Source of the DNA: an archaeon BMS3Bbin15
GTDB lineage: Archaea > Hydrothermarchaeota > Hydrothermarchaeia > Hydrothermarchaeales > BMS3B
DNA length: 47,630 nucleotides
Assembly: GCA_002897955.1 (NCBI GenBank)
Contig: BDTY01000099.1
Coordinates: 1-47,630, forward strand
Direction: 5' to 3'
The notes under the pieces were generated by a model that searched no databases, was not told where the DNA came from, and worked only from the letters and a program-made list of their open reading frames with translations. The position numbers and the translations under genes were made by a program. Within the stretch, counting starts at the first letter, position 1. The number at the start of each line of letters is the position of its first letter. Positions 19,241 to 47,461 of the stretch are shown piece after piece.

Positions 19241-20039
19241 TTTCATTATTATGAATTCTTTAAAAGACTTTGCAATCAGGCTGGCAGAAAGCTCCGGTGA
19301 ATTTCTCCTCCAGAATTTCAAAAAGGATGAGGCTTTAATATCAACCAGAGGGCTGTCAAAGGAAATAACCACAGAGTATGATATAGAAAACGACAGATTT
19401 ATAATAAAAAAAATTTCTGAGACCTTTCCTGAACACAGTATTCTTACAGAGGAAAGCGGTTTTATTGACAGGAATAGTGAATATACATGGATTGTTGACT
19501 CTCTTGACGGAAGCAGTAATTTTGCTCTCGGAAATCCCTTCTTTTCTGTATCCATTGCCCTTATAAAAGATGAAAAACTGACTATCGGTGTGGTCTATGC
19601 ACCCTATCTCAGAGAACTCTACACTGCTGAAGCTTCTAGGGGTGCTTTTTTAAACGGAAGGAGAATTAATGTATCCATGGTGGACAGGCTGGATAGCAGT
19701 TACCTGTTAACCTGTGAGGGGGGAGAGAAGAGCAATGCAAAGATAGCAGGAATCAATGCACTGCTTCATCCGGGAGTAAAGGACCTGCGCAAGCTGGGTT
19801 CAGCTGCCATTGAGGGTGCCTGGGTTGCTTCAGGACGGGCAGAAGCATATATTACAACAGGCATATACCCTTGGGATATAGCCGCTGCTGTACTTATTGT
19901 CAGAGAGGCAGGAGGTAAGGTAAGTGATTTTGAAGGTAGAGAATGGAAGGTGGAGAAGAGTAATATTATTATGTCCAATGGAAAAATCCACGGAAAATTA
20001 ATTGAACTACTCATACCTCAGAGCTTCGGCAGGATTTAA
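19230..20039 (+). CDS. suhB: Inositol monophosphatase / fructose-1,6-bisphosphatase family protein
   Basis: Motifs ILTEESG, WIVDSLDGSSNF and WDIAAAVLIVREAGG. The probable start is ATG 19251 (MNSLKDF). Confidence 0.8.
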   Translation: MSDNFIIMNSLKDFAIRLAESSGEFLLQNFKKDEALISTRGLSKEITTEYDIENDRFIIKKISETFPEHSILTEESGFIDRNSEYTWIVDSLDGSSNFALGNPFFSVSIALIKDEKLTIGVVYAPYLRELYTAEASRGAFLNGRRINVSMVDRLDSSYLLTCEGGEKSNAKIAGINALLHPGVKDLRKLGSAAIEGAWVASGRAEAYITTGIYPWDIAAAVLIVREAGGKVSDFEGREWKVEKSNIIMSNGKIHGKLIELLIPQSFGRI

Positions 20040-21194
20040 CTTTGCAGCCCTGTAGGCTGGATATAGACCAGAGATAACACCAATAAACAGAGAAAAACCA
20101 AGGGCTGAAATTATAAGTTTGGCTGTTATAAGAGTTTGAAAGCTTGAACCGATATACATGGTGCCCATATACTGTATGAATGCAGAGATTATTGCTCCCA
20201 CCACAATTCCTATTATACCACCCACAATCCCCAGAATTCCTGCCTCGGCAACAAAGATTTTCAGCACCATGGAATCATCTGCACCTATTGCCTTCATAAC
20301 GCCTATTTCTCTTGTTCTCTCAAGAACCGAGGTTAACATTGTATTCATAATTATAACTGACCCAACAACAAGAGAAATTGATGCGATTCCCCCTATCACA
20401 AAGGTGATAATGCCTATCATTGTATCAATCTGCTTTGCAAGCTGCTCTTTTGTAAGCACATCAAAATCCTTGCCTCCTCTTATCTTTTTAAGTACCTTCT
20501 CAATCTTGGTGGCAAGCGGTTTAACCACACCTTTATTATTAGCCACCACCCAGAACATTGTAATTTCATTTCCAGCATTAAATAAATCCCTTACGGAATT
20601 CAGGCTCATATACACACTGGAATCATCTTCGGTATTACCGATTTCTCCAAAGATTCCCACAACTATGAAATTTTTACCCTTAATTTTGATAACATCCCCT
20701 ACATGCACTTTATTATCAAATATTTTATTTGCTACTCTGTAGCCAATATCTATCTCATCAAAACTATTATCACTGAAAAATCTTCCTTCCTTTATAGTAT
20801 AGTACTTACGAAACTGGTTCATCCCACCTCTTTTTATTCCAGTGACCCACATACTTTCAACTTCATTTCTGAATTTTGCTGTAGTAGGCCTGTAAAATAC
20901 CTTCACAATATCCTTAACTTGGGGAATAGCTTTTACTGCTCTTATCTGTGAATCAGTAAAGGGTAGAGATTCACTGGGGGGCCCCTGCATACTCATCATT
21001 CCACTGGGAACAACCATAATCTTATTGCTACCCATAGCATCAAGCTGCCCGGAAACACTTGCTCGCATACCTTCGCCAATAGAAACCATACTCACAACTA
21101 TTGCAACACCTATGACTATTCCCATGACAGTGAGAAAGCTCCTTATTTTGGATTCTTTAATATTTTTTATAGAGAAATATATCTCTTCAATCAT
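20007..21194 (-). CDS. ABC transporter permease, MacB/FtsX type
   Basis: N-terminal TM, a ~200-aa extracytoplasmic MacB-like domain, then a C-terminal FtsX 3-TM module with REIGVMKAIGA and LYPAYRAAKLNPAEALRYE. Confidence 0.8.
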   Translation of the reverse strand: MIEEIYFSIKNIKESKIRSFLTVMGIVIGVAIVVSMVSIGEGMRASVSGQLDAMGSNKIMVVPSGMMSMQGPPSESLPFTDSQIRAVKAIPQVKDIVKVFYRPTTAKFRNEVESMWVTGIKRGGMNQFRKYYTIKEGRFFSDNSFDEIDIGYRVANKIFDNKVHVGDVIKIKGKNFIVVGIFGEIGNTEDDSSVYMSLNSVRDLFNAGNEITMFWVVANNKGVVKPLATKIEKVLKKIRGGKDFDVLTKEQLAKQIDTMIGIITFVIGGIASISLVVGSVIIMNTMLTSVLERTREIGVMKAIGADDSMVLKIFVAEAGILGIVGGIIGIVVGAIISAFIQYMGTMYIGSSFQTLITAKLIISALGFSLFIGVISGLYPAYRAAKLNPAEALRYE

Positions 21195-21195
21195 A

Positions 21196-22380
21196 TTAGC
21201 TCCTCAGTGAGTCAACAGGATTCAACTTTGAGGCTCTGTAAGCAGGGTAAAGCCCGGCAATTGCACCAATTACAACAGCAAATATAAGAGCAAAGGCTGC
21301 AAGGGCAGGTGAAACTGTTGTTTTAAGAACATCATTGCCAAGGTAAACGGAAGCAGCCATATTTATAACTCTGGAAGTAGCATAGCCAAGGGCAACACCA
21401 ATAACACCGCCTGTGAACCCCACCACCACAGCATCTGCCATAAATATCTTCATTACCTGACTGTCGCTTGCGCCTATTGCCTTTATTATTCCTATCTCCC
21501 TAACCCTTTCAGTCACATTCATTATCATTGTATTGGAAATTCCTATAGCTCCAACTATCAGAGAGATTGCTGCAAGACCTCCAAATACAACCTGTACAAT
21601 TTTGAAAACCACACTGGCTTTTTCAAAGATTTCTTTCTGAGTAGCAACAAAATAATTCTTGCTGCTTTCCTTTCTCTTCTTAATCAGGTCATCAATTCTA
21701 ATTTTTACATCTTCAATATTTACTCCTTTCTGCGCTTTTACAATAATCATTGTTACAGCATTTTTGGCTCCAACAAGTTCTCTCAACTGGTTAATATCTG
21801 TATATAGAGTGTAATCCTTGATTCTATCCCCTGTCTTCTGGAAGATTCCGACAACCTCGAAGGTTTTCCCTCTTATTTTTATTGTATTGCCAACATTTAC
21901 TTTCCTTGAAAAGAGGTCATCATGGATACCATAGCCTATAACCACCTTACTCTGGTCTCCTTTGCCCAGCCACCTTCCCTGAAGTAGAGAATAACCCCCG
22001 GTGTTACCAAAGGTGTTTTCTGCCTTCTCAGGGTCTATGCCAAAGATAACTATGTTTTTCTCCTGTCCTCCAAATTCCACGCTTGTGGAGACGCTGAACA
22101 AGGGGGAGACAAAGGCAACACCAGAAAGCTTCCCAATAGCTCTTGAGTCATCATCATTCAGCTGGCCAGCTTTGGTCCCATAGGAGAATTTTGGGGTAAT
22201 AATAATTTTATCACTACCCAGAGACTGTAGCTGCTCTTTCAGTGTTGCCTTCATGCCTGAACCCACCGATATCATACTCACAACTGCCATTATACCAATA
22301 ATCACTCCCATAAGAGTGAGAAATGTTCTTGCTTTTCTGTGAGAGAGCGTTCTTACCGAAAGAAGAAAATAGTCATACAT
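21196..22380 (-). CDS. ABC transporter permease, MacB/FtsX type (paralog)
   Basis: Same architecture as its neighbour (REIGIIKAIGA, LYPAYRASKLNPVDSLRS). No ATPase gene is adjacent. Confidence 0.8.
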   Translation of the reverse strand: MYDYFLLSVRTLSHRKARTFLTLMGVIIGIMAVVSMISVGSGMKATLKEQLQSLGSDKIIITPKFSYGTKAGQLNDDDSRAIGKLSGVAFVSPLFSVSTSVEFGGQEKNIVIFGIDPEKAENTFGNTGGYSLLQGRWLGKGDQSKVVIGYGIHDDLFSRKVNVGNTIKIRGKTFEVVGIFQKTGDRIKDYTLYTDINQLRELVGAKNAVTMIIVKAQKGVNIEDVKIRIDDLIKKRKESSKNYFVATQKEIFEKASVVFKIVQVVFGGLAAISLIVGAIGISNTMIMNVTERVREIGIIKAIGASDSQVMKIFMADAVVVGFTGGVIGVALGYATSRVINMAASVYLGNDVLKTTVSPALAAFALIFAVVIGAIAGLYPAYRASKLNPVDSLRS

Positions 22381-22448
22381 TAAATTAAATTAGGCATAAA
22401 GAATATAAAAGTCTTGGCTACTTCTCATCTGATTTCCTCATTACAAAA
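22365..22448. repeat. Direct repeat copy A (84 bp) flanking the vapBC cassette
   Basis: GAAAATAGTCATACATTAAAT[TAAAT]TAGGCATAAAGAATATAAAAGTCTTGGCTACTTCTCATCTGATTTCCTCATTACAAAA. It contains the real start of the permease gene plus a duplicated last 9 codons and stop of the phosphatidyltransferase gene. Confidence 0.9.
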
Positions 22449-22502
22449 CAAATCTTGTGGTCATGAATTCGAAACAAATAAACCCCGATATCTCCTTCTA
22501 TT

Positions 22503-22994
22503 TTAGGGCTTCCACACCTTAAGGAAGTCAACACGTTCAAAATCTCTGTCGTTAGTGGCAATATCTGTGATGTCATTCACTTTGCAGCAGGCTGAATGAA
22601 GTGCATCGGAAAACCAGAGCCCGTACTTCCGTGAGATATCCAAGGCCTTCTCCAGAACATCAGAAGTATCCAGTATTTTTAACCCGTAGTCTTTGAGGAC
22701 TTCCTCACTTGCCTTAAAAGGTCTGTTTAAGCTTTTAATGAAAGCCGGATTGCTCTTCAGAAATTTTACAGCTTTCTGAGAGGTTAGCTTCTTTTTAGAA
22801 TAAACCTCGAAAATCACGAGTTTATGAAAAAATTCATCAAGCACAATGGAATTAATATACCCTTCAATTTCACCATACTTAACCCTACCAAGGAAATCCT
22901 CGCACGTTTTGGTATAATGGGTGTTTGTAAAAGCATATATCAGGATACTTGTATCGACGAAGACCGAACCTTTAACCAGGCGCTCCAGCTCCAT
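22503..22994 (-). CDS. vapC: PIN-domain toxin VapC
   Basis: Acidic PIN residues sit in VFVDTSILIYAF, IVLDEF, SDALHSA and ATNDRDFERV. 163 aa. The start overlaps the vapB stop. Confidence 0.8.
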   Translation of the reverse strand: MELERLVKGSVFVDTSILIYAFTNTHYTKTCEDFLGRVKYGEIEGYINSIVLDEFFHKLVIFEVYSKKKLTSQKAVKFLKSNPAFIKSLNRPFKASEEVLKDYGLKILDTSDVLEKALDISRKYGLWFSDALHSACCKVNDITDIATNDRDFERVDFLKVWKP

Positions 22995-23188
22995 CAGACC
23001 AGCTCTTCCAAATCCTTTTCCGCAATCTTCAGAACTATATCCTCTGGAACATCTATTTTGGTTTTAACAATTGGCCCTTCCTTCAACTTAACCAGTATCT
23101 CTTTTTCGCCGGTTTTTAAAGGTCTGTCAAGGATGAGCGTTTTCTTATCAATGATTCTGCCGTACACCTCTACAGGCATTCCTATCAC
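22994..23188 (-). CDS. vapB: Putative antitoxin VapB (AF2212/DUF104-like)
   Basis: 64-aa ORF translationally coupled upstream of vapC. VEVYGRIIDKKTLILDRPLKTGEKEILVKL resembles the small beta-barrel antitoxins paired with archaeal PIN toxins. Confidence 0.55.
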   Translation of the reverse strand: MIGMPVEVYGRIIDKKTLILDRPLKTGEKEILVKLKEGPIVKTKIDVPEDIVLKIAEKDLEELV

Positions 23189-23320
23189 CTGTTATATGAT
23201 TACCATTTAACCTTAAAAAACTATACTGCCCTGTTTTTAGTTTCAGCAATACTGGAATATTTCCCCCGCATGAAATACAGGAAGGATAAATCTCTGGAAC
23301 TTAAATATAAAATTTTGATT

Positions 23321-23399
23321 GAAAATAGTCATACATTAAATTAGGCATAAAGAATATAAAAGCCCTGGCTACTTCTCATCTGATTTCCTCATTACAAAA
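23321..23399. repeat. Direct repeat copy B (79 bp) flanking the vapBC cassette
   Basis: Same sequence as copy A apart from two transitions (GCCCT versus GTCTT) and the absence of one TAAAT unit. It contains the real 3' end of the phosphatidyltransferase gene plus an orphan copy of the first 16 nt of the permease CDS. Confidence 0.9.
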
Positions 23400-23968
23400 T
23401 AGGTGTAGGTAAATCTTTCTATTGCTGTGGAGAAGGCAATAAGAGTCAGTAAAACAAAACCATAGTATAGCATCTTTTCCGCAGGATATAAACCCATAAC
23501 GGCTGCTGCAAGGGCAACAATCAGAATAATCAGTCTCTCAGCTCTTTCGCCAAGACCGACATCGCACTTTGGAATGAAGTGTTCCGCTCTTGCTCTTGTA
23601 TAGCTAACCATAAAGCTTCCAGCCAGAGCAAACATGCCGAGAAGATACGCATGAAGATATAAGGTTAAGCCTATAAGCACGGCTGCATCGCTGTATCTAT
23701 CCAGAACTGAATCAAAAAAAGCACCGAAGTCCGAAATTCTATTTAGAAGCCTTGCCACAGCTCCATCCATTACATCAAAAAACCCGGCAAGTATAAGAAA
23801 AACAAGAGCAAGGGAAAGATTACCAGTGTAAAAAGATAAGGCAGCTATTACACTCGCTACAAAACCCATAATTGTAATCAAACTCGGGCTTATTCTCAGA
23901 AAAGCAAAAATCTTTGCTATGGGAATAATTATAGAATTTGCTATACCTCTAAAATTTGAACTGAGCAT
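23369..23968 (-). CDS. CDP-alcohol phosphatidyltransferase (archaetidylinositol-phosphate / archaetidylserine synthase-like)
   Basis: Signature DVMDGAVARLLNRISDFGAFFDSVLDRYSD, which fits D(x)2DG(x)2AR(x)8G(x)3D(x)3D. Multi-TM, 199 aa. Confidence 0.8.
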   Translation of the reverse strand: MLSSNFRGIANSIIIPIAKIFAFLRISPSLITIMGFVASVIAALSFYTGNLSLALVFLILAGFFDVMDGAVARLLNRISDFGAFFDSVLDRYSDAAVLIGLTLYLHAYLLGMFALAGSFMVSYTRARAEHFIPKCDVGLGERAERLIILIVALAAAVMGLYPAEKMLYYGFVLLTLIAFSTAIERFTYTYFVMRKSDEK

Positions 23969-24005
23969 CGTTCAGTTATTATAGCTTAACTATTAAAAAA
24001 TTTGT

Positions 24006-25523
24006 GTGAGAATTATGAAAGTTCTTCTAATAACAGGGAAACTGGCTGAGGATAGGGTCAGAGCTATAGCAGGAAAGTATGGCATTGACGTTTATACTTT
24101 CAATGTCAATGTTGCAAGTTTTATAACCCCTGGGAAGATTATCAGGGAGTTTAAGGGCACAAGATTTATTAAAAATTATGATGCTCTTATAGTTCCCGGT
24201 ACCATAGGGGGTAATTTGAATGCTGTTGAAAGGGAGCTGGAAATTAAAGCTTTCAGAGGAACAAAGGATTTATCACTCCTTGAATTCCTACTTAAGCATC
24301 TTGAAAGTCTTCCTCTTTCATCTGAAGAATCTGCTGATGATATGCTCAGGGAGTATATTAAAGAGGCTGCTATGGAGGAAATTAAAAATATTGAAATGCC
24401 TGAAGTTAAGGAAAGGCTTCTGAAGGAGAAAGGAAATTTCCTTATAGGCACTCTGGGCACTGGAAAGGATTTTCCAATGCGAGTGGTTGCCGAAGTGGTG
24501 GATGCTGAAAAGCTGAAAAGGAAGGAACTCCTTGAGAAGGCAGAGTATTATCTGAAAAGTGGAGCAGACATTGTCGATATAGGAATAAGGGAAAGAAATC
24601 CCGAGGCTGTTGAAAAAGCTGTATCTGTTCTCAAGGAGCTTGATGCCCCAGTATCTATAGACACAATGGAAGCAGATAATATTGAAGCCGCCATGGATGC
24701 AGACATAGATTTAATTCTCAGTTTCAGCAGGGAGTTGATTGAGGAGCTTCAGGGAGTTAAAGTAGCAAGTGTTATTCTTCCCATAGTCAGCGGAAAGCTT
24801 CCCGAGAGTGCTGAAAGGAGAGTTGAATTTCTCGAGCAAAATCTTGGTCTTGCCAGAGATTCCGGTTTTTCAAGAGTGATAGCTGACCCTGTACTTAACC
24901 ATCCAAATTTTAATCTCGTGGGAGCTCTTGCTGCCTACAGGCTCTTTGCAAGAAAAAATCCTGATGAAGCAATCCTGTTTGGAGCAGGTAATGTGACCGA
25001 GCTTCTTGATGCTGACAGTACAGGAGTTAATGCCCTGCTTGCAAGTATAGCAGGAGAGATTGGCGCTGAATTACTATTTACAACAGAGGCAAGCGATAAG
25101 ACTCTCGGGTGCGTAAGAGAGCTTTCTCTGGCAGGAAAGATGATGTTCCTTGCGAGGAAAAGAAAGTCGGCACCAAAGGACATTGGAATTGACCTTCTGG
25201 TGCTGAAGGAGAAGAGAATTTTTAGAGAGCCTCTTGACAGCAATGTGTTAAATGCAATCCTCGTGGAGGCTGAAAAAAGTTCCAGCTATATTGAGGATAG
25301 GAAAGGTTACTTTAAGATTTTCGTTAAAGATATGATTTATGCAGCTCATTTCATAGGAGATGAAATAGACATTGTAATCACCGGCGAGAAGGCAGGAGAT
25401 ATAAGTCATACTATATGTAAACTCGGGCTTATCTCAGAACCATCTCATGGTTTGTATCTCGGGAGGGAGCTTCAGAAGGCAGAATTTGCCCTGAGATATA
25501 ACAGGAGCTACCTTCAAGATTAA
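24006..25523 (+). CDS. Dihydropteroate synthase-like (pterin-binding) protein, archaeal ~500-aa type
   Basis: The central region (GADIVDIG..., VSIDTM, ISFSRE, AGNVTEL) resembles a pterin-binding TIM barrel, with extra N- and C-terminal domains. A role in methanopterin or folate-like biosynthesis is inferred only. The start is probably ATG 24015. Confidence 0.6.
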   Translation: MRIMKVLLITGKLAEDRVRAIAGKYGIDVYTFNVNVASFITPGKIIREFKGTRFIKNYDALIVPGTIGGNLNAVERELEIKAFRGTKDLSLLEFLLKHLESLPLSSEESADDMLREYIKEAAMEEIKNIEMPEVKERLLKEKGNFLIGTLGTGKDFPMRVVAEVVDAEKLKRKELLEKAEYYLKSGADIVDIGIRERNPEAVEKAVSVLKELDAPVSIDTMEADNIEAAMDADIDLILSFSRELIEELQGVKVASVILPIVSGKLPESAERRVEFLEQNLGLARDSGFSRVIADPVLNHPNFNLVGALAAYRLFARKNPDEAILFGAGNVTELLDADSTGVNALLASIAGEIGAELLFTTEASDKTLGCVRELSLAGKMMFLARKRKSAPKDIGIDLLVLKEKRIFREPLDSNVLNAILVEAEKSSSYIEDRKGYFKIFVKDMIYAAHFIGDEIDIVITGEKAGDISHTICKLGLISEPSHGLYLGRELQKAEFALRYNRSYLQD

Positions 25524-25541
25524 GCGCTGAAAAGGATTTAA

Positions 25542-25931
25542 ATATCAAATTGGCTATGCTGTATATCAGAATTTTCAAAGCATCTGGATAGCAGAAGATA
25601 TGATGTTGTGTTCACCTAAAACTTATATCATTTTTTCAGAAAGCAGGAAAGGAAGAAATTCAGAGAGACAGTCAGAAGAGTTCTGAAACCAGAGGGACTT
25701 CTTTTTCTGAGTACTCTATCCATAGAAGATATACAGGATTATACCACTCTCCCAGAAACAGCTTCGTCCAGAAAACCATACGTCCATCTATCAACCAGAG
25801 AAGAATTAAAGAAAGAGTTTAATTTTTTGAGGATTAAAGAGCTTTATGAGCATGAATATGACGAGCCTCACTCTTCTGGTGAGATTCACCACCATGTTTT
25901 ATTGATGCTTATGGGTGAAAACATTGGGTAA
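25542..25931 (+). pseudogene. Remnant of a class I SAM-dependent methyltransferase
   Basis: A single frame reads ...HLDSRRYDVVFT*NLYHFFRKQERKKFRETVRRVLKPEGLLFLSTLS...HHHVLLMLMGENIG*. There is an in-frame TAA at 25617-25619. No start codon is present and the N-terminal SAM-binding motif I is missing. Confidence 0.5.
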
Positions 25932-25982
25932 AGAGAGCTTCGCAGCAAAACACTTATAAAACAGTAAAAATATTCTCTGATT

Positions 25983-26552
25983 ATGCGTCAGGCAAAAGTA
26001 GAACGGACAACGAAAGAAACAGGTATAGAGGTAATTATCAATCTTGACAGCACTGGTAAAAGTACAATAAATTCATCCTTCCCCTTTTTGAATCATCTTC
26101 TTGACAGTTTTTCAAGACATGGCAGGTTTGATATTAAAATTAATGCCACAGGTGATAACGAACACCATATTGTCGAGGACATTGCAATTGTTCTTGGAAG
26201 GGCTTTCAATAAAGCCCTTGGTGAAAAAGTTGGAATAGAGCGCTTTGGCTCAGCAATTATACCCATGGATGATGTACTTGTGCTTGTGGCGATTGATATC
26301 GGTGGAAGGAGTTATATTGTAAATAATGTGAAGTTCAGATATAAGTCTGTAGAAGGTCTCAGTTCAGAGATGATTGACCACTTTATTGACACCCTTGCAA
26401 AAGAGATGAAGATAAACCTCCATGCAAAGCTTCTTGCAGGTAAAAATGAGCACCACAAGGCTGAAGCTTTATTCAAGGCTATGGGTGTTGCCATGAGGAA
26501 GGCCACAAGAGTTACAGGAGATGAACTTCCCAGCACAAAGGGCACACTATAA
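25983..26552 (+). CDS. hisB: Imidazoleglycerol-phosphate dehydratase
   Basis: 189 aa with ERTTKET, FLNHLLDSFSRHG, DNEHHIVEDIAIVLG and NEHHKAEALFKA motifs. Confidence 0.9.
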   Translation: MRQAKVERTTKETGIEVIINLDSTGKSTINSSFPFLNHLLDSFSRHGRFDIKINATGDNEHHIVEDIAIVLGRAFNKALGEKVGIERFGSAIIPMDDVLVLVAIDIGGRSYIVNNVKFRYKSVEGLSSEMIDHFIDTLAKEMKINLHAKLLAGKNEHHKAEALFKAMGVAMRKATRVTGDELPSTKGTL

Positions 26553-27578: not shown

Positions 27579-28058
27579 CTATAGCCATTTCATACTTCTT
27601 TTATACTTAGTGGGACTTTCTCCTTCTTCAAGTTTCCTGAAGATATACAGATGCTCGTGAGCAATTAGCAGGAAGTCATATTTACATAGCCAGCTCTCTC
27701 GTGTTGTCTTCATCTTCCACTGGAGCTTTATAACTTCCTCACGCAGAATAAAGCCAGCATCGAGGAAGGCAAGAAGCACTCTTGTAGCTATGGGCACATA
27801 GTGCTTATATTTGCGGGTGTTTCCAATCAGCACGGCGCAGTGCTTCCCAGGCTTGAGCACGCGGTAGCACTCCTCAGCAACCCTGGCCATCTCTTTTATA
27901 TATTCTTCAAGCTTGAACGAGGATAAATCTCCAGGTATGCGCTTTGCAGAGTATGGAATTATGCCAGCGTAGGGTAGATGTGTGGCAATCAGGTCTATGC
28001 TTTCATCTGTAATCAGGTTCAGGTTGCACGCATCTCCGCCATTTTTAGATGTAATAAA
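27579..28058 (-). pseudogene. 5'-truncated DNA methyltransferase fragment (motif IV onward)
   Basis: The open frame extends upstream of the annotated 103-aa ORF: ...GGDACNLNLITDESIDLIATHLPYAGIIPYSAKRIPGDLSSFKLEEYIKEMARVAEECYRVLKPGKHCAVLIGNTR... The catalytic (D/N/S/T)PPY-type motif is degenerated to THLPY. No start codon exists upstream of the internal Met at 27890, and the SAM-binding motif I region is absent. The frame is closed by a TAA at 28059-28061. Confidence 0.6.
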
Positions 28059-28098
28059 TTATACTGATGATAATTGGTTGCGATTTTGATTTTTATGA

Positions 28099-28425
28099 CA
28101 TGATAGGGAAAAATTAAGAGAAGAATTAGTTCAAACTGGAGATTTAGATGAATACAAACAATTTATTAAATAATCTTTACAAGAAATGAGCAGAGTTCTA
28201 CGAAAAGAAAAATATTGTATTGTTGAGGTAGGTGATGTTCGACATAAGTCAAAGAAACTTTATCTTGATAGGGTTATTGTTGAGTTAGTTGGAGATATGG
28301 ATTTAAAAGTTGAAAAAATAATGATTAATTACATGAATGTTCCTAAAATATCAAGAGCATTTAGAAGAAAAGAAGAATAGCAAGGTACTAAAACTAATAG
28401 GTGTATTATCATGAAGAAAATTTAA
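28099..28425 (+). pseudogene. Decayed C-terminal fragment of a second DNA methyltransferase
   Basis: A single frame reads HDREKLREELVQTGDLDEYKQFIK*SLQEMSRVLRKEKYCIVEVGDVRHK...ISRAFRRKEE*QGTKTNRCIIMKKI*. It has two in-frame stops (TAA 28171-28173 and TAG after 28377). The E..RVL(K/R) post-motif-IV pattern is present. There is no N-terminal half. Confidence 0.5.
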
Positions 28426-29231
28426 TTTTTAAAGTCTGATAATCTTACTTCTTGAAGGGTATTTTTTAGTCGTTGTTCAATAATTTTGTTGTAAACAGGA
28501 GAAAGTTCAAAACCAAGATATTTTCTTCTGTTTTTTTTAGCAGAAACTGCAACAGTTCCAGAACCCATAAATGGGTCAAAAACGACCTCATTTTTGTTTG
28601 AACTTGCTTTAACAAAAATATCAATTAACTTTACAGGTAATTGGCAAACATGCTCGGTTTTATCTTTGTTTACATTCTTCACAATATTCATCTCAATAAT
28701 GTCTTCACCATTATAATCAAACTTAAAAACGTCGTAAGGTGTTTTTCCTTTTGATCCTTTTTCAATTAATTTTTTAATTCGTTTATCAGTTGGATTTCTA
28801 TAAGGTTCTGCAATTGCATCTTTATTAAATGTGCAATCACTTTGCTTTTTTGCTTTAATATAAAATAAAATACTATGTTGTGTTCTTGTGAAATTATACT
28901 TAGAATGACCTGTATTTGTTGGATAATGCCATGTCATCCAACGCTTAAATAGAAGATGTTCATCCAAGAAAGGCATCAGATAAGCATTATTTTCTGGATA
29001 GTTAAAAAGATAAAGGCTACCTCCTAACTTCAATATTCTTATACATTCTGAAAGCCATTTCTTACACCATTCTATATATTCTTCTTTTGATTTTTTATCT
29101 TTATATGGGCTGTTATATTGTTTACCAATATTGAAAGGAGGATCTGTAATAATTAAGTCTACCGAGTTGTCAGGAATTCTTTTTTTCATTCCCTCTACAC
29201 AATCCTCATTGTAAATTTTGTTGGTTTCCAT
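28422..29231 (-). CDS. Beta-class N6-adenine/N4-cytosine DNA methyltransferase (intact)
   Basis: Motif IV DLIITDPPFNIG lies near the N-terminus and motif I VFDPFMGSGTVAVSA near the C-terminus; RILKLGGSLYLF is also present. 269 aa. The region is very AT-rich. Confidence 0.85.
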   Translation of the reverse strand: METNKIYNEDCVEGMKKRIPDNSVDLIITDPPFNIGKQYNSPYKDKKSKEEYIEWCKKWLSECIRILKLGGSLYLFNYPENNAYLMPFLDEHLLFKRWMTWHYPTNTGHSKYNFTRTQHSILFYIKAKKQSDCTFNKDAIAEPYRNPTDKRIKKLIEKGSKGKTPYDVFKFDYNGEDIIEMNIVKNVNKDKTEHVCQLPVKLIDIFVKASSNKNEVVFDPFMGSGTVAVSAKKNRRKYLGFELSPVYNKIIEQRLKNTLQEVRLSDFKN

Positions 29232-29232
29232 T

Positions 29233-29493
29233 TTACATCAGTTGAAGAACTTTTTTACCATCTTCGGTAATCTGATATAATCGTCCTCTTTTATCTTCTT
29301 CATTAAGACATCTTACAAGTTTATTGTCTTTAAATTCTTTGAGGAAAATCGAAACGTGATTAACGACGATTCCAGTTTCTTTTGATATTTCAGTGGGAGT
29401 TAAAACTTTTCCTCTGTCAAGTAATTTTAAGATATTTACTCTATTTTCACTTGTTTTGAGCAATTGAAGACCTTTTATCATAAGCTTATCCAT
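29233..29493 (-). CDS. Small winged-helix (ArsR/MarR-like) regulator, candidate controller of the MTase module
   Basis: 86 aa. NRVNILKLLDRGKVLTPTEISKETGIVVNHVSIFLKEFKDNKLVRCL...GRLYQITEDGKKVL fits helix-turn-helix plus wing. Its stop lies 1 nt before the MTase start. Confidence 0.65.
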   Translation of the reverse strand: MDKLMIKGLQLLKTSENRVNILKLLDRGKVLTPTEISKETGIVVNHVSIFLKEFKDNKLVRCLNEEDKRGRLYQITEDGKKVLQLM

Positions 29494-42954: not shown

Positions 42955-45150
42955 ATGAAAGACTTAGAACTGAAAGTGGCAGAAGCCAGGTCTAACGATG
43001 TTGGGAGAGGCATAGCAAGAATTGACCCTCTCGTTATGGATAAACTGGGAATAACAACTGGTGATGTCGTTCAGATTACAGGTAAAAAAAGTACTGTTGC
43101 AATATGCTGGCCAGGTTATCCTGAAGATGAGGGTTTCGGGATAATCAGAATTGACGGGTTCGCAAGAAGGAATGCAGGCATAGGTATTGACGACAAAGTA
43201 AGGATAAAGAAAATAGAGCCAAAAATCGCCACAAAGGTTAAGCTTGCTCCAACTGAGCCGCTGAGAATAGTGGGCGGTGAAACATATCTAAAATCATATC
43301 TTGAGAACAGAGCTATAGCCAGGGGCGACATTATTGATTTAAATATAATGGGAAGGAAGATTGGCCTGGTAGCTGTAGCAATCCAGCCCCGTGCTGATGC
43401 AGTGATAATAAACTATTCAACAGAGATTGAAATAAGTGAAAAACCTGCAGGTGAGATTAAAGAGTCAAAAATTCCCAGAGTTGCTTATGAAGATATAGGC
43501 GGCCTCAGAGAGGAAATAAGAAAAGTCAGAGAAATGATAGAGCTTCCTCTCAAATATCCTGAGGTTTTTGAGCGCCTCGGTGTGGAAGCTCCCAAGGGTG
43601 TGCTCCTTTATGGCCCACCAGGCACAGGCAAAACACTCCTTGCCAGAGCAGTCGCAAATGAGACAGATGCCGACTTCCACAGTATATCCGGCCCGGAAAT
43701 AATGAGCAAATTTTACGGGGAAAGTGAGGAGAACCTCAGGAAGGTATTCGAGGAAGCAAAGGAGAATGCTCCAAGTATAATTTTCATTGATGAACTGGAT
43801 GCAATAGCTCCTAAAAGAGAGGAGGTAACTGGCGAGGTTGAGCGCAGAGTTGTTGCCCAGCTTCTCTCACTTATGGATGGCCTTGAAAGCAGAGGAGAAG
43901 TTGTTGTCATAGGTGCAACAAACAGGCCTGATGCCATAGACCCTGCTCTGAGAAGACCCGGCAGGTTTGACAGGGAGATAGTAATAGGCGTGCCTGACAG
44001 AAATGCAAGAAAGGAAATTCTGCAGATTCACACAAGAGGTATGCCCCTTCCAGAGGACGAAGAAGAGAAAACAAAAATAATAGAACACTTTGCTAACAAG
44101 ACCCATGGCTTTGTTGGTGCAGATTTAGAGGCACTCTGTAAAGAGGCTGCCATGCGCTCTCTCAGAAGAATACTCCCTGAGATAGACTTTGAGCTTGAAA
44201 CAATACCTGCTGACATACTTGAAAAGATTCAGGTCGGCTATAATGACTTTCAGGAAGCTTTCATGGACATAGAACCCAGTGCCATGCGTGAAGTTCTTGT
44301 TGAAGTGCCTGATGTAAACTGGAGTGATATAGGTGGTCTTGATGATGCAAAACAGGAACTCAAGGAAGCTGTTGAGTGGCCTCTTAAGTATCCCGAGATT
44401 TTTGAATACATGGATGCCAGCCCTCCAAATGGTATTCTCCTCTTTGGCCCACCAGGTACAGGTAAAACAATGCTTGCGAAAGCAGTGGCAAATGAGAGTG
44501 AAGCCAACTTTATAAGTGTTAAAGGTCCGGAGTTTCTGAGCAAGTGGGTTGGAGAGAGCGAAAAAGCAGTACGAGAGACATTCAAAAAGGCGAGGCAGGC
44601 CGCACCCTGTGTTGTATTCATGGATGAGATAGACTCAATAGTTCCTGCAAGAGGGGCTGGTTTGGGCTCTCATGTAACAGAAAGGGTTGTGAGTCAGATT
44701 CTGACTGAACTGGACGGTCTTGAAGAGCTTCGTGGTGTTGTTGTTATAGGTGCAACAAATAGGCCTGACATTATAGACCCGGCTCTTCTCAGACCAGGTA
44801 GATTCGACAGGCTTGTGTATATACCCCCACCAGATAAAAAAGCCAGATTGGAAATATTTAAACTCCATACAAAAAATAAACCTCTTGCAGAAGATGTGAA
44901 CTTTGAAGAGATGGTAGAGAACACAGAAGGCTATACCGGTGCTGATATAGCATCAGTATGCAACGAGGCTGTTATGCTGGCTATAAGGGAATTTATTAAA
45001 GAAGGAAAGACTCTTGAAAAGGAAACTGTAAAGAAGCAGCTAATGCTCCACAAGAAACACTTCGAATCTGCAATCAAGAAGATAAGAAGTATCAGCAAGG
45101 AAGAACTCAGGAGTTATGAAGAAGTTGCAAAGAAGTTCCATGAGGCATGA
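42955..45150 (+). CDS. cdc48: Cdc48/VCP/VAT-type AAA+ ATPase (paralog 1)
   Basis: N-domain [19 protein letters not shown]. Two AAA modules, each with GPPGTGKT and DELD/DEID Walker B. 731 aa. Confidence 0.9.
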
Positions 45151-45151
45151 T

Positions 45152-45174
45152 GAGGGTGTATTCCACCCTTTTTT
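45152..45174 (+). terminator. Hairpin plus T-run after cdc48 paralog 1
   Basis: AGGGTG (45153-45158) pairs with CACCCT (45164-45169) across a 5-nt loop and is followed by TTTTTT. It starts 2 nt after the stop codon. Confidence 0.4.
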
Positions 45175-45274
45175 AAATTTTTACCAGTAACTTCAAATAT
45201 ACCGAAGTCTTATTTATAAACGAAATAAATTTATATTTATGGGTCATAATACTTATCAATCGAAGGTGTGAGGA

Positions 45275-47461
45275 ATGCAGGTAGAGCTGAAAGTTGCAGA
45301 GGCAATGCAGAATGACGTGGGCAGAGGTATTATAAGGCTTGATACAAAAACCAGAGAGATTCTTGGAATTTCTACGGGAGATATTGTTGAGATTGATGGC
45401 AAAAGAAAAACTGTTGCGATTGTCTGGCGTGCCTATGCAGAGGATGAAGGTTTAGGAATAATAAGAATGGATGGAATCCTCAGGCAGAATGCTGAAGTTT
45501 CTCTTGGGGAAACTGTCAGTATTAAAAAGGCTGAAGCCAAAGATGTAAAAAAAGTAACAATTTCACCCAATCAGGCTATACGCTTTTCAGCAGGTTTTGG
45601 AGATTTTATAAAAAGAAGACTTCTCGGAAGACCTTTAATAAAGGGAGATAAGATTGTGGTCGGAGTTCTCGGCACAACCCTTCCTTTCACTGTAACCCAG
45701 ACTTACCCTTCAGGTATAGTCAAAGTGACTGATAAAACCCAGATAATTGTCAAGGAAGAGCCCATGAGAGAAAAGGCTGGAATACCCAGTATAGCCTATG
45801 AAGATATAGGTGGTCTCAAGGATGAAGTTCAGAAAATTCGCGAGTTGATTGAACTTCCCATGAAGCATCCCGAACTCTTCGAACACTTGGGCATAGAGCC
45901 GCCCAAGGGTGTGCTCCTTCATGGTCCACCGGGTACAGGTAAAACACTTATAGCCAGAGCAGTTGCAAATGAAACAAATGCATTCTTTATACCTCTAAAC
46001 GGCCCCGAAATAATGAGCAAATTCTACGGGGAAAGTGAAGAGAACCTCAGGAAGGTATTCAAAGAAGGAGAGGACAATGCTCCAAGTATTATTTTCATAG
46101 ATGAACTGGATGCCATAGCTCCGAAAAGAGAGGAGGTTCATGGTGAGGTTGAGCGCAGGGTTGTTGCCCAGCTTCTCTCACTGATGGATGGCCTTAAATC
46201 ACGTGGACGGGTTGTTGTCATAGGTGCAACAAATAGGCCTGATACAATTGACCCTGCTCTGAGAAGACCCGGCAGGTTTGACCGGGAGATAATAATAGGT
46301 GTGCCTGACAGAAATGCCAGAAAGGAAATTCTGCAGATTCATACAAGAGGCATGCCCCTAACAGAGGATGTTGACCTGGATGAATTCGCAGATATAACTC
46401 ACGGTTTTGTTGGTGCGGATTTAGAGGCACTGTGCAAAGAGGCTGCCATGAACACTCTCAGAAGAATCCTTCCAGAAATTGACCTTGAAGAGGAGACAGT
46501 GCCTCCGGATATACTTGAAAGCCTTGAGGTAACAAAGGAGGATTTCAAAGAAGCCTGGAAATCCATAGAACCCAGTGCTTTGAGAGAAGTTTATGTTGAA
46601 GTGCCCAATATAAAATGGGAAGATATAGGTGGTCTTTCAGATATCAAAGCTAAGCTCAGGGAAGCTGTTGAATGGCCAATAAAATATCCCGAAGCTTTTG
46701 TTAAGCTGGGAATCAAGCCAACCAAAGGTATTCTTCTTTTTGGCCCACCTGGCACAGGTAAAACAATGCTTGCAAAAGCAGTGGCAAATGAGACAGATGC
46801 CAACTTTATAAATGTCAAAGGCCCTGAAGTTCTCAGCAAATGGGTTGGTGAAAGTGAAAAAACAATGAGAGAGATATTCAAAAAAGCAAAGCATGCCGCA
46901 CCAACAGTCGTCTTCTTTGATGAGATAGATGCAATAGCAAGTACAAGAAGTGTTGAGGCTGGAACAAGGGTAAGTGAGAGAGTGTTGAATCAGCTTCTAA
47001 CTGAGATGGATGGTCTCGAAGAGCTTCACAATGTACTTATAATAGCAGCAACAAACAGACCGGATATCCTTGACCCTGCTCTTATAAGGCCTGGAAGATT
47101 TGACAAGATTCTACTTGTCCAGGCCCCAGATGAGAAGGCAAGAAGAGAGATATTTAAGGTTCATACGAGAGGCATGCCACTTAAAGATGATGTTAATCTC
47201 AAAGAGCTTGCAAAAGAGACAGAAAGCTTCTCAGGTGCAGATATAGAGGCTCTATGCAGGGAAGCTGCTCTACTGGCCATGAAAGAGGCTATAAAGAATG
47301 AGAATGAAAATCTGGATGACAAGAATGTGGAGAGAAGACACTTCAAGAAAGCTCTCAAACATGTAAGGCCAAGCACAACACCTGAGATGATAAAGAGTTA
47401 TGAGCAGTTTTTAAGAAGGTATGAAAGCAGAGAACTTGAGAAGCTTGTGTATATGGCATAG
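45275..47461 (+). CDS. cdc48: Cdc48/VCP/VAT-type AAA+ ATPase (paralog 2)
   Basis: Same architecture as paralog 1 ([19 protein letters not shown], two GPPGTGKT modules); 728 aa. Confidence 0.9.

Follow-up and report, generated by a model that had tools for sequence, protein, structure and literature searches.

A vapBC gene pair between ~80-bp direct copies of a transferase/permease junction in an archaeon of the Hydrothermarchaeales: an insertion with a long duplication of its target

The window analysed here is a stretch of 47,630 nucleotides (nt) of contig BDTY01000099.1 (positions 1 to 47,630, forward strand) from the genome assembly of BMS3Bbin15, an archaeon of the Hydrothermarchaeota (GCA_002897955.1), and its subject is a predicted vapBC toxin-antitoxin (TA) pair that lies by itself between two ~80-bp direct repeats of a host gene junction. 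The features of the locus all read on the minus strand. In that direction, the locus opens with a CDP-alcohol phosphatidyltransferase gene (23369-23968; an open reading frame (ORF) of 199 amino acids (aa) with a Pfam CDP-OH_P_transf match, E=1.2e-18), the 3' end of which falls within repeat copy B (23321-23399, 79 nt). An insert of 872 nt (22449-23320) follows, with vapB and a PIN-domain vapC as the only genes within it, then repeat copy A (22365-22448, 84 nt), and finally a gene for a MacB/FtsX-type ABC permease (21196-22380, 394 aa, called from its ORF and Pfam match), of which the first 16 nt lie in copy A. Realignment confirmed the two copies reported in an initial annotation of this DNA, together with the differences between them: two transitions (CCAAGAC versus CCAGGGC) and one 5-nt TAATT/TAAAT unit that copy A has in addition. 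Exact identity between the copies reaches 34 nt at its longest, as against a maximum of 17 nt and a mean of 12 nt in 100 shuffles of positions 20001-26000, and a 20-nt degenerate probe for the repeat finds two matches in the 47.6-kb window where none is expected.

Read on the minus strand, the repeat unit is indeed the host gene junction that the initial annotation took it to be. It starts with a single T, continues through the last nine codons of the transferase and its TAG stop (FVMRKSDEK*) and a 37-nt spacer that contains a TATA-like box, and ends in ATGTATGACTATTTTC, the first 16 nt of the permease gene. The transferase is contiguous with copy B only and the permease with copy A only. In both copies the spacer separates the two gene ends. 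Copy B holds the transferase 3' end that is in use and a permease start without function, and copy A, with the TATA-like box in its spacer, holds a transferase 3' end without function and the real permease start. The boundaries of the repeats are sharp; homology stops there, and there is no hidden extension of the duplication. We note that the duplication has also made a chimeric 52-aa ORF (22418-22576, minus strand), which runs from the 3' region of vapC through the tail of the insert into copy A and ends in FVMRKSDEK*. This ORF is probably meaningless.

The insert is built of four parts. Its first 38 nt, leftmost in the transferase orientation (23283-23320, with a TATA-like TTTATATT), are common to a second strain, whose flanks are ~98% identical to the window (L003, L005), and the two diverge thereafter. 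Next comes a 51-nt filler (23232-23282) that is specific to the window-type insert and has no match at any other locus. It leads into the conserved cassette core of ~726 nt (22504-23228), which extends from ~40 nt upstream of vapB, with a promoter-like TTTTTTAAGG, to the vapC stop, and a 54-nt tail (22449-22502) connects that stop to copy A. The tail is common to the 98%-identical strain (L050-L052) and absent from the other contexts in which the cassette occurs. The vapB candidate (22994-23188) encodes 64 aa from a GTG start or 61 aa from an ATG at 23179, and its stop overlaps the vapC start (TGATG). Its orthologues are annotated as AF2212-like (PF01954); the window VapB protein itself has no Pfam match. 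The vapC candidate (22503-22994) encodes a protein of 163 aa with a PIN domain (Pfam PIN, E=7e-18), in which the acidic residues D14, E54, D109, D130, D149 and D151 are invariant across an alignment of 11 homologues. The PIN domain, the acidic residues, and the overlapping upstream antitoxin gene make this pair a candidate type II VapBC module. The insert's GC content (0.389) presents no compositional contrast to that of the window (0.401).

Relatives without the insert were found in two sister species. In SZUA-158 (L019; transferase 91% identical in aa) and binchicken_co64_34 (L020; 82%), ~35 nt separate the transferase from the permease that follows it, the repeat is present in one copy, and no vapBC homologue is present in the loci retrieved. 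Remnants of vapBC or of the insert flanks were likewise absent elsewhere in the window and in L019-L021. The sequence state of both empty sites is that of copy A, and copy B therefore carries the derived changes, namely the GGG and the loss of one 5-nt unit. The comparison supports the arrangement that the initial annotation had proposed as ancestral, transferase stop, spacer, and permease start, and dates the insertion after the split from SZUA-158. The opposite polarity, in which the duplicated and filled state came first and recombination between the repeats then removed the insert from the sister species, has in its favor that direct-repeat recombination leaves exactly one copy, as in L019 and L020. 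We regard it as highly improbable, because two successive outgroups are empty and lack vapBC at their loci, the transferase-permease adjacency is itself absent from the more distant relatives L021 and L048, and an earlier insertion with duplication would be required all the same.

A misassembly, which the initial annotation had considered as a source of the duplication, would consist of an empty site and a ~0.95-kb circular or repeated vapBC unit that were mis-joined through the common 34-mer. Logan unitigs L004, L013 and L016 do end at the repeat, and the k=31 graph by itself is ambiguous. However, the two copies can be told apart by two single-nucleotide polymorphisms (SNPs) and an indel, which excludes the empty-site-plus-circle resolution of that graph. 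MEGAHIT contig L007 joins the transferase to a B-type copy, unitig L013 joins a B-type copy to the insert and continues to the next repeat, and MEGAHIT contig L018 joins the vapC tail to an A-type copy and the permease. Two further assemblies (ERZ1742238 NODE_607 and GCA_011040935.1 DREF01000059), whose identity to the window is no lower than 99.95%, have the same structure, so that three independent full-length assemblies agree, and the same two junctions are present in the 98% sister strain. We reject the artefact on the strength of these SNP-tagged junction contigs from independent assemblies and put its probability close to nil.

The sister strain is represented by contigs from other vent metagenomes (GCA_006243145.1 and GCA_006240825.1) in which both junctions enclose a remodelled slot. 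Because the junctions are common to the two strains, the insertion with its duplication predates their ~2% divergence. The slot was read from both ends; the contigs end in an S8 subtilase gene and at an insertion sequence (IS), and the middle is unassembled. From the transferase side, L005 and L003 extend across the repeat and as far as nt 38 of the insert, beyond which they carry a lipoprotein-like gene together with the S8 subtilase gene. The permease pseudo-start within the B-position copy has decayed in L003, and in L005 the B-position copy is 100% identical to copy A. From the permease side, L050-L052 carry the start of the repeat, the 54-nt tail, and vapBC (VapC 98% identical), with a 437-aa DDE transposase upstream of the point that corresponds to window position 23231. 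The transposase belongs to an ISMac19-like (ISNCY) element of 1647 bp at L050:3-1649 (GCA_006243145.1 VAPA010111482.1), which has 23-nt imperfect terminal inverted repeats (TIRs) and sits directly upstream of the vapB promoter. One homologue of the 437-aa ORF is named "ISNCY family transposase ISMac19", and hundreds of archaeal homologues exist, typically on ~1.65-kb contigs. Two nucleotides of the left flank fit a GGGCAGTAT target duplication. The element is an ordinary IS that probably arrived in a later event unrelated to the vapBC insertion, and the 437-aa ORF, as part of an IS with TIRs of its own, was rejected as the recombinase responsible for that insertion.

The lipoprotein-like gene and the S8 subtilase gene of the slot (L005:1183-3273) make up a mobile two-gene module, which recurs in the window-type population (L053:4814-6971) at 87.7% nt identity, where it adjoins a DUF772 transposase-domain protein and a ParA-like ATPase. 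The contig that carries this second copy, ERZ1742238 NODE_5759, ends in Illumina adapter sequence (L053:6935-7002; AGATCGGAAGAGCACACGTCTGAACTCCAGTCAC...), and the C-terminus of protein P0023 (...RSEEHTSELQSH) is thus artefactual. Taken together, the contigs show a slot that has been remodelled since the insertion and behaves as an islet. The initial statement that the insert carries only vapBC consequently holds for the window strain and fails for the 98% strain, with its extra cargo and IS transposase. The 872-bp form may be ancestral or a deletion derivative; the unassembled middle of the variant slot is compatible with both.

Homologues of the pair at 74-98% aa identity all come from Hydrothermarchaeales, where the cassette core is found in at least eight contexts. 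These are the transferase/permease locus of the window; riboflavin kinase/endonuclease V; a site beside a second AF2212-like/PIN pair near ApbE; hicAB/tRNA-Ser (L048); a site directly after a pterin-binding gene (L066); a site next to Vut_1; UDP-glucose dehydrogenase/ATP-grasp, with a truncated VapC; and L055. The nucleotide block common to the copies always measures ~726 nt, with one end ~40 nt upstream of vapB and the other at the vapC stop, and is never longer. VapC is 76-79% identical between lineages whose host transferase shares only 44-55%, and it follows that the cassette moves horizontally within the order. A second copy with repeats at its borders occurs in Pyrohabitans sp. (L048), where ~1.0 kb holding only vapBC (VapC 76% in aa) lies between perfect 16-nt direct repeats CGCCGGGGAAGGGATT at 576-591 and 1589-1604 (BLAST E-value of 9e-5 for 700-nt flanks). 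The repeat is the 3' end of a tRNA-Ser(tga) gene (L048:1588-1673, minus strand), and hicAB lies directly outside the repeat-bounded stretch. Direct repetition of a tRNA 3' end is the textbook scar of integrase-mediated integration, and judged by its repeats the L048 copy looks like an att-flanked, integrase-less vapBC insert. Flanking repeats were found in two contexts only, the window and L048, and were rejected as a general feature of the family.

The surroundings of the other copies yielded several further observations. In three divergent lineages, a member of the cassette family lies no more than 4 kb from a divergent CDP-alcohol transferase/pterin-binding gene pair, at differing positions and in differing orientations (window 23369-25523; L066:2640-5492; L048:676-7181); in L066, vapBC begins 41 nt past the stop of the pterin gene. 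A rough estimate that assumes a ~2-Mb genome gives a chance of ~5e-4 for this proximity (two of the seven other contexts), which makes coincidence very unlikely. At L044:5074-6492, beside ApbE/Rnf genes, the cassette has undergone a local tandem duplication, which is seen as two tandem AF2212-like/PIN pairs with 76-80% nt identity over parts of their length. An intact antitoxin gene with a truncated VapC (117 aa) at L071:5001-5354, between the UDP-glucose dehydrogenase and ATP-grasp genes, is a decaying copy of the cassette. On a high-GC metagenome contig (L059:2306-5878, also L060), three ~88%-identical paralogues of ~130-160 aa alternate with TA pairs, a DUF433/DUF5615-PIN pair and then a 48%-identical vapBC. 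The long repeats of L059/L060 were rejected as target duplications, as they are a paralogous gene interleaved with TA pairs.

Signatures of a known mobile element were sought at the window locus. The initial annotation had reported neither TIRs on the insert nor an integrase or transposase, and both negatives were upheld. No TIRs were detected at the insert ends (p=0.39), and no recombinase is present in the 872-bp insert or among the Pfam matches in the parts of the window that were examined (13.2-34.8 kb and 40.9-47.5 kb). Neither the insert nor the repeat contains an Rfam family or a tRNA. Viral contigs scanned for the repeat, the insert end, VapC, and the IS transposase gave no match. A duplication flanks the insertion here as it does in DDE transposons and IS, miniature inverted-repeat transposable elements (MITEs), and casposons. 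Target duplications of such elements are typically shorter than 10 bp, with 14-15 bp for casposons and 19-26 bp for IS1630. The window duplication is ~10 times the typical length, and in contrast to these elements the insert has no TIRs, transposase, or Cas1; a transposon was rejected for want of TIRs and of homology past the repeat. With the TA cassettes of integrons, the locus has in common a single promoter-proximal TA unit that stabilizes a variable slot, but there is no attC-like hairpin, integron integrase, or cassette array.

The explanation that we favor, at a probability of about 0.45, is att-type integration followed by decay to the addictive vapBC module. In this scheme, vapBC would have resided on a small circular DNA, or on a larger element of which it is the survivor, and the circle would also have carried a copy of the transferase/permease junction, so that the circle junction would read vapC tail, one repeat copy, AATCAAAATTTT... 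Reciprocal recombination between the circle and the chromosomal junction would then have left the two ~80-bp repeats as attL/attR-like scars, catalyzed by a recombinase, most likely a tyrosine integrase, that worked in trans or was deleted afterwards. Both repeat copies would be pinned by selection, given that copy B completes the transferase and copy A supplies the permease promoter and start codon, and vapBC, if its predicted TA function holds, would resist loss because it is addictive. Deletion bias working against these fixed points would trim the slot to a minimal remnant of repeat, short filler, vapBC, short tail, and repeat. The slot would meanwhile continue to tolerate new arrivals, as the sister strain may illustrate with its IS and its S8-protease module.

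Several properties of the locus are in keeping with att-type integration. The repeat spans the 3' end of one gene and the start of the next, and both host genes are intact. A repeat that preserves a gene end in this way is typical of att duplications. As in integrated elements and their remnants, the repeats duplicate a gene 3' end and match a single chromosomal site that would correspond to attB, relatives have an empty site, and the slot varies between strains. It is the sibling cassette in L048, bracketed by its 16-bp repeat of the tRNA-Ser 3' end, that makes att-type recombination the leading candidate. The horizontal spread of the cassette over at least eight contexts also speaks for this route. 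For archaea, it is an established idea that integrative elements capture genes and lose the integrase (She et al. 2001, 2002, 2004, as listed in PMC8371274). A number of results weigh on the other side. The insert, the examined parts of the window, and the visible sister slot (L005, L050) contain neither an integrase gene nor a fragment of one, and the only mobility gene in that slot is the DDE IS with its own TIRs. The repeat forms no hairpin or dyad (minimum free energy of -1.1 kcal/mol; z=+1.48 versus shuffles, that is, it folds worse than they do), and no element with a repeat-like attP was met among the viral contigs, the one set scanned for it. Unlike the usual att-flanked elements, the target is a junction of protein genes and not a tRNA gene, and the insert is only 872 bp long. 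At 79-84 bp, the repeat is near the length of archaeal att sites and yet exceeds the published crenarchaeal range of 29-69 bp (PMC6563490). Lastly, direct repeats flank the cassette in only two of its ~8 contexts, the window and L048.

Any route of insertion must account for the duplication of ~80 bp of target, and a precedent without a known recombinase exists in bacteria, where restriction-modification genes undergo "insertion with long target duplication" (Nobusato et al. 2000, Gene 259:99; Furuta, Abe and Kobayashi 2010, NAR, PMC2853133). In that class, 45-420 bp of target are duplicated, no mobility gene is present, the repeats often lie across start or stop codons, and the mechanism is described as unresolved; no archaeal case passed the 2010 screen (PMC2853133). 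The window locus resembles the class in that a small selfish module of the addiction type lies, without transposase, integrase, or inverted repeats, between direct repeats longer than 30 bp that align to a single copy at the empty site of a relative, with start and stop codons in the repeat and surviving neighbour genes. As to the mobility genes considered by Furuta 2010, the window-type insert and its examined neighbours have none, the repeat occurs twice in the 47.6 kb searched, and the sister slot has the IS. The locus departs from the class in its host, an archaeon, and in its cargo, a TA pair with a PIN RNase in place of DNA-cutting restriction-modification genes. Since vapBC does not cut DNA, the double-strand-break rationale given for restriction-modification genes does not carry over, and the locus fits the class only if the latter is widened beyond that cargo. 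In the literature searched, we found no report of TA modules with long target duplications. The suggestion of the initial annotation that the locus records an undescribed route is not supported, as insertion with long target duplication has been published and ~80 bp is close to the archaeal att range. What is new here is the TA cargo, the archaeal host, and the clean series of filled, empty, and variant sites; the pattern itself is of known kinds.

A long target duplication made without a site-specific recombinase is the next explanation in order, tentative and less probable than att-type integration. A linear vapBC fragment of ~0.87 kb could have been captured at a break with ~80-nt staggered ends that were then filled in, or a template switch akin to microhomology-mediated break-induced replication could have taken replication into a vapBC copy and brought it back ~80 nt upstream. 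Such a route is consistent with an insert shorter than 20 kb, a repeat longer than 30 bp, an empty site that aligns to both repeats and the lack of a mobility gene, the features used by Furuta 2010, and with the span of start and stop codons that is frequent in that class (PMC2853133). The sharp boundaries, the unstructured repeat, the lack of a TIR and a recombinase, and the minimal conserved unit (-40 to the stop codon) in every cassette context also agree with it, and copying over a short range would fit the proximity to the transferase/pterin pair in the window, L048, and L066. Against it, archaea are not known to have enzymes that make staggered cuts of 80 nt, the DNA breaks invoked for restriction-modification systems are beyond the capacity of a PIN RNase, and the window holds no donor copy or remnant nearby. 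There is one clear case only, and the other repeat-flanked copy, at a tRNA 3' end, points to an integrase. Distinctly less likely again is integration driven by homology, in which a circle or fragment from a related donor already carried the junction and entered through a single crossover of the Campbell type or through homology-facilitated illegitimate recombination in which the anchor overlapped the join; by either path the homologous ~80 bp would be duplicated. The insert's GC content, which matches that of the host, suggests a donor within the lineage, the cassette does spread horizontally within the order and recurs near the transferase/pterin pair in three lineages, and the B-position copy of L005 is 100% identical to copy A. 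But 80 bp offers homologous recombination only a short substrate, a donor in which vapBC lies beside an unduplicated junction was not found, and nothing in the flanks of other cassette copies is common to the window insert. The sequence alone cannot separate these two routes from the att-type one.

Two other features of the window may be recorded. A methylase islet at 27579-29493 comprises an N4/N6 DNA methyltransferase gene (28422-29231, minus strand), a winged-helix protein gene (29233-29493, minus strand), and, as a fragment of 103 aa, a second N6_N4 methylase (27579-27890, minus strand); no restriction gene was recognized in it. The largest repeat family of the window (42955-47461) consists of two tandem CDC48/VCP-like AAA ATPase paralogues with two AAA domains each.

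The movement of chromosomal TA modules between genomes is poorly documented and is usually assumed to proceed via plasmids, phages, and islands. The locus described here is unusually clean in this respect, with a filled site, two empty sites, a strain variant, sharp junctions, and a TA pair alone with its ~80-bp duplication. We entertain, as a possibility that we would not yet bet on, that minimal archaeal TA cassettes (promoter, vapB and vapC, ~0.73 kb) are mobility units that enter gene junctions and tRNA ends with duplications of 16-80 bp and without a recombinase of their own, by way of host repair or replication or of integrases in trans. If so, insertion with long target duplication would extend from bacterial restriction-modification genes to archaeal TA modules, which would indicate a general mechanism that is independent of cargo. 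Should a recombinase-free route exist, the insertions at the window locus and at tRNA-Ser would connect the mobility of TA modules with the long-duplication insertions known for restriction-modification genes. If the locus is instead a decayed att-flanked element, it would show how addiction and essential gene ends together dictate the minimal remnant of an island.

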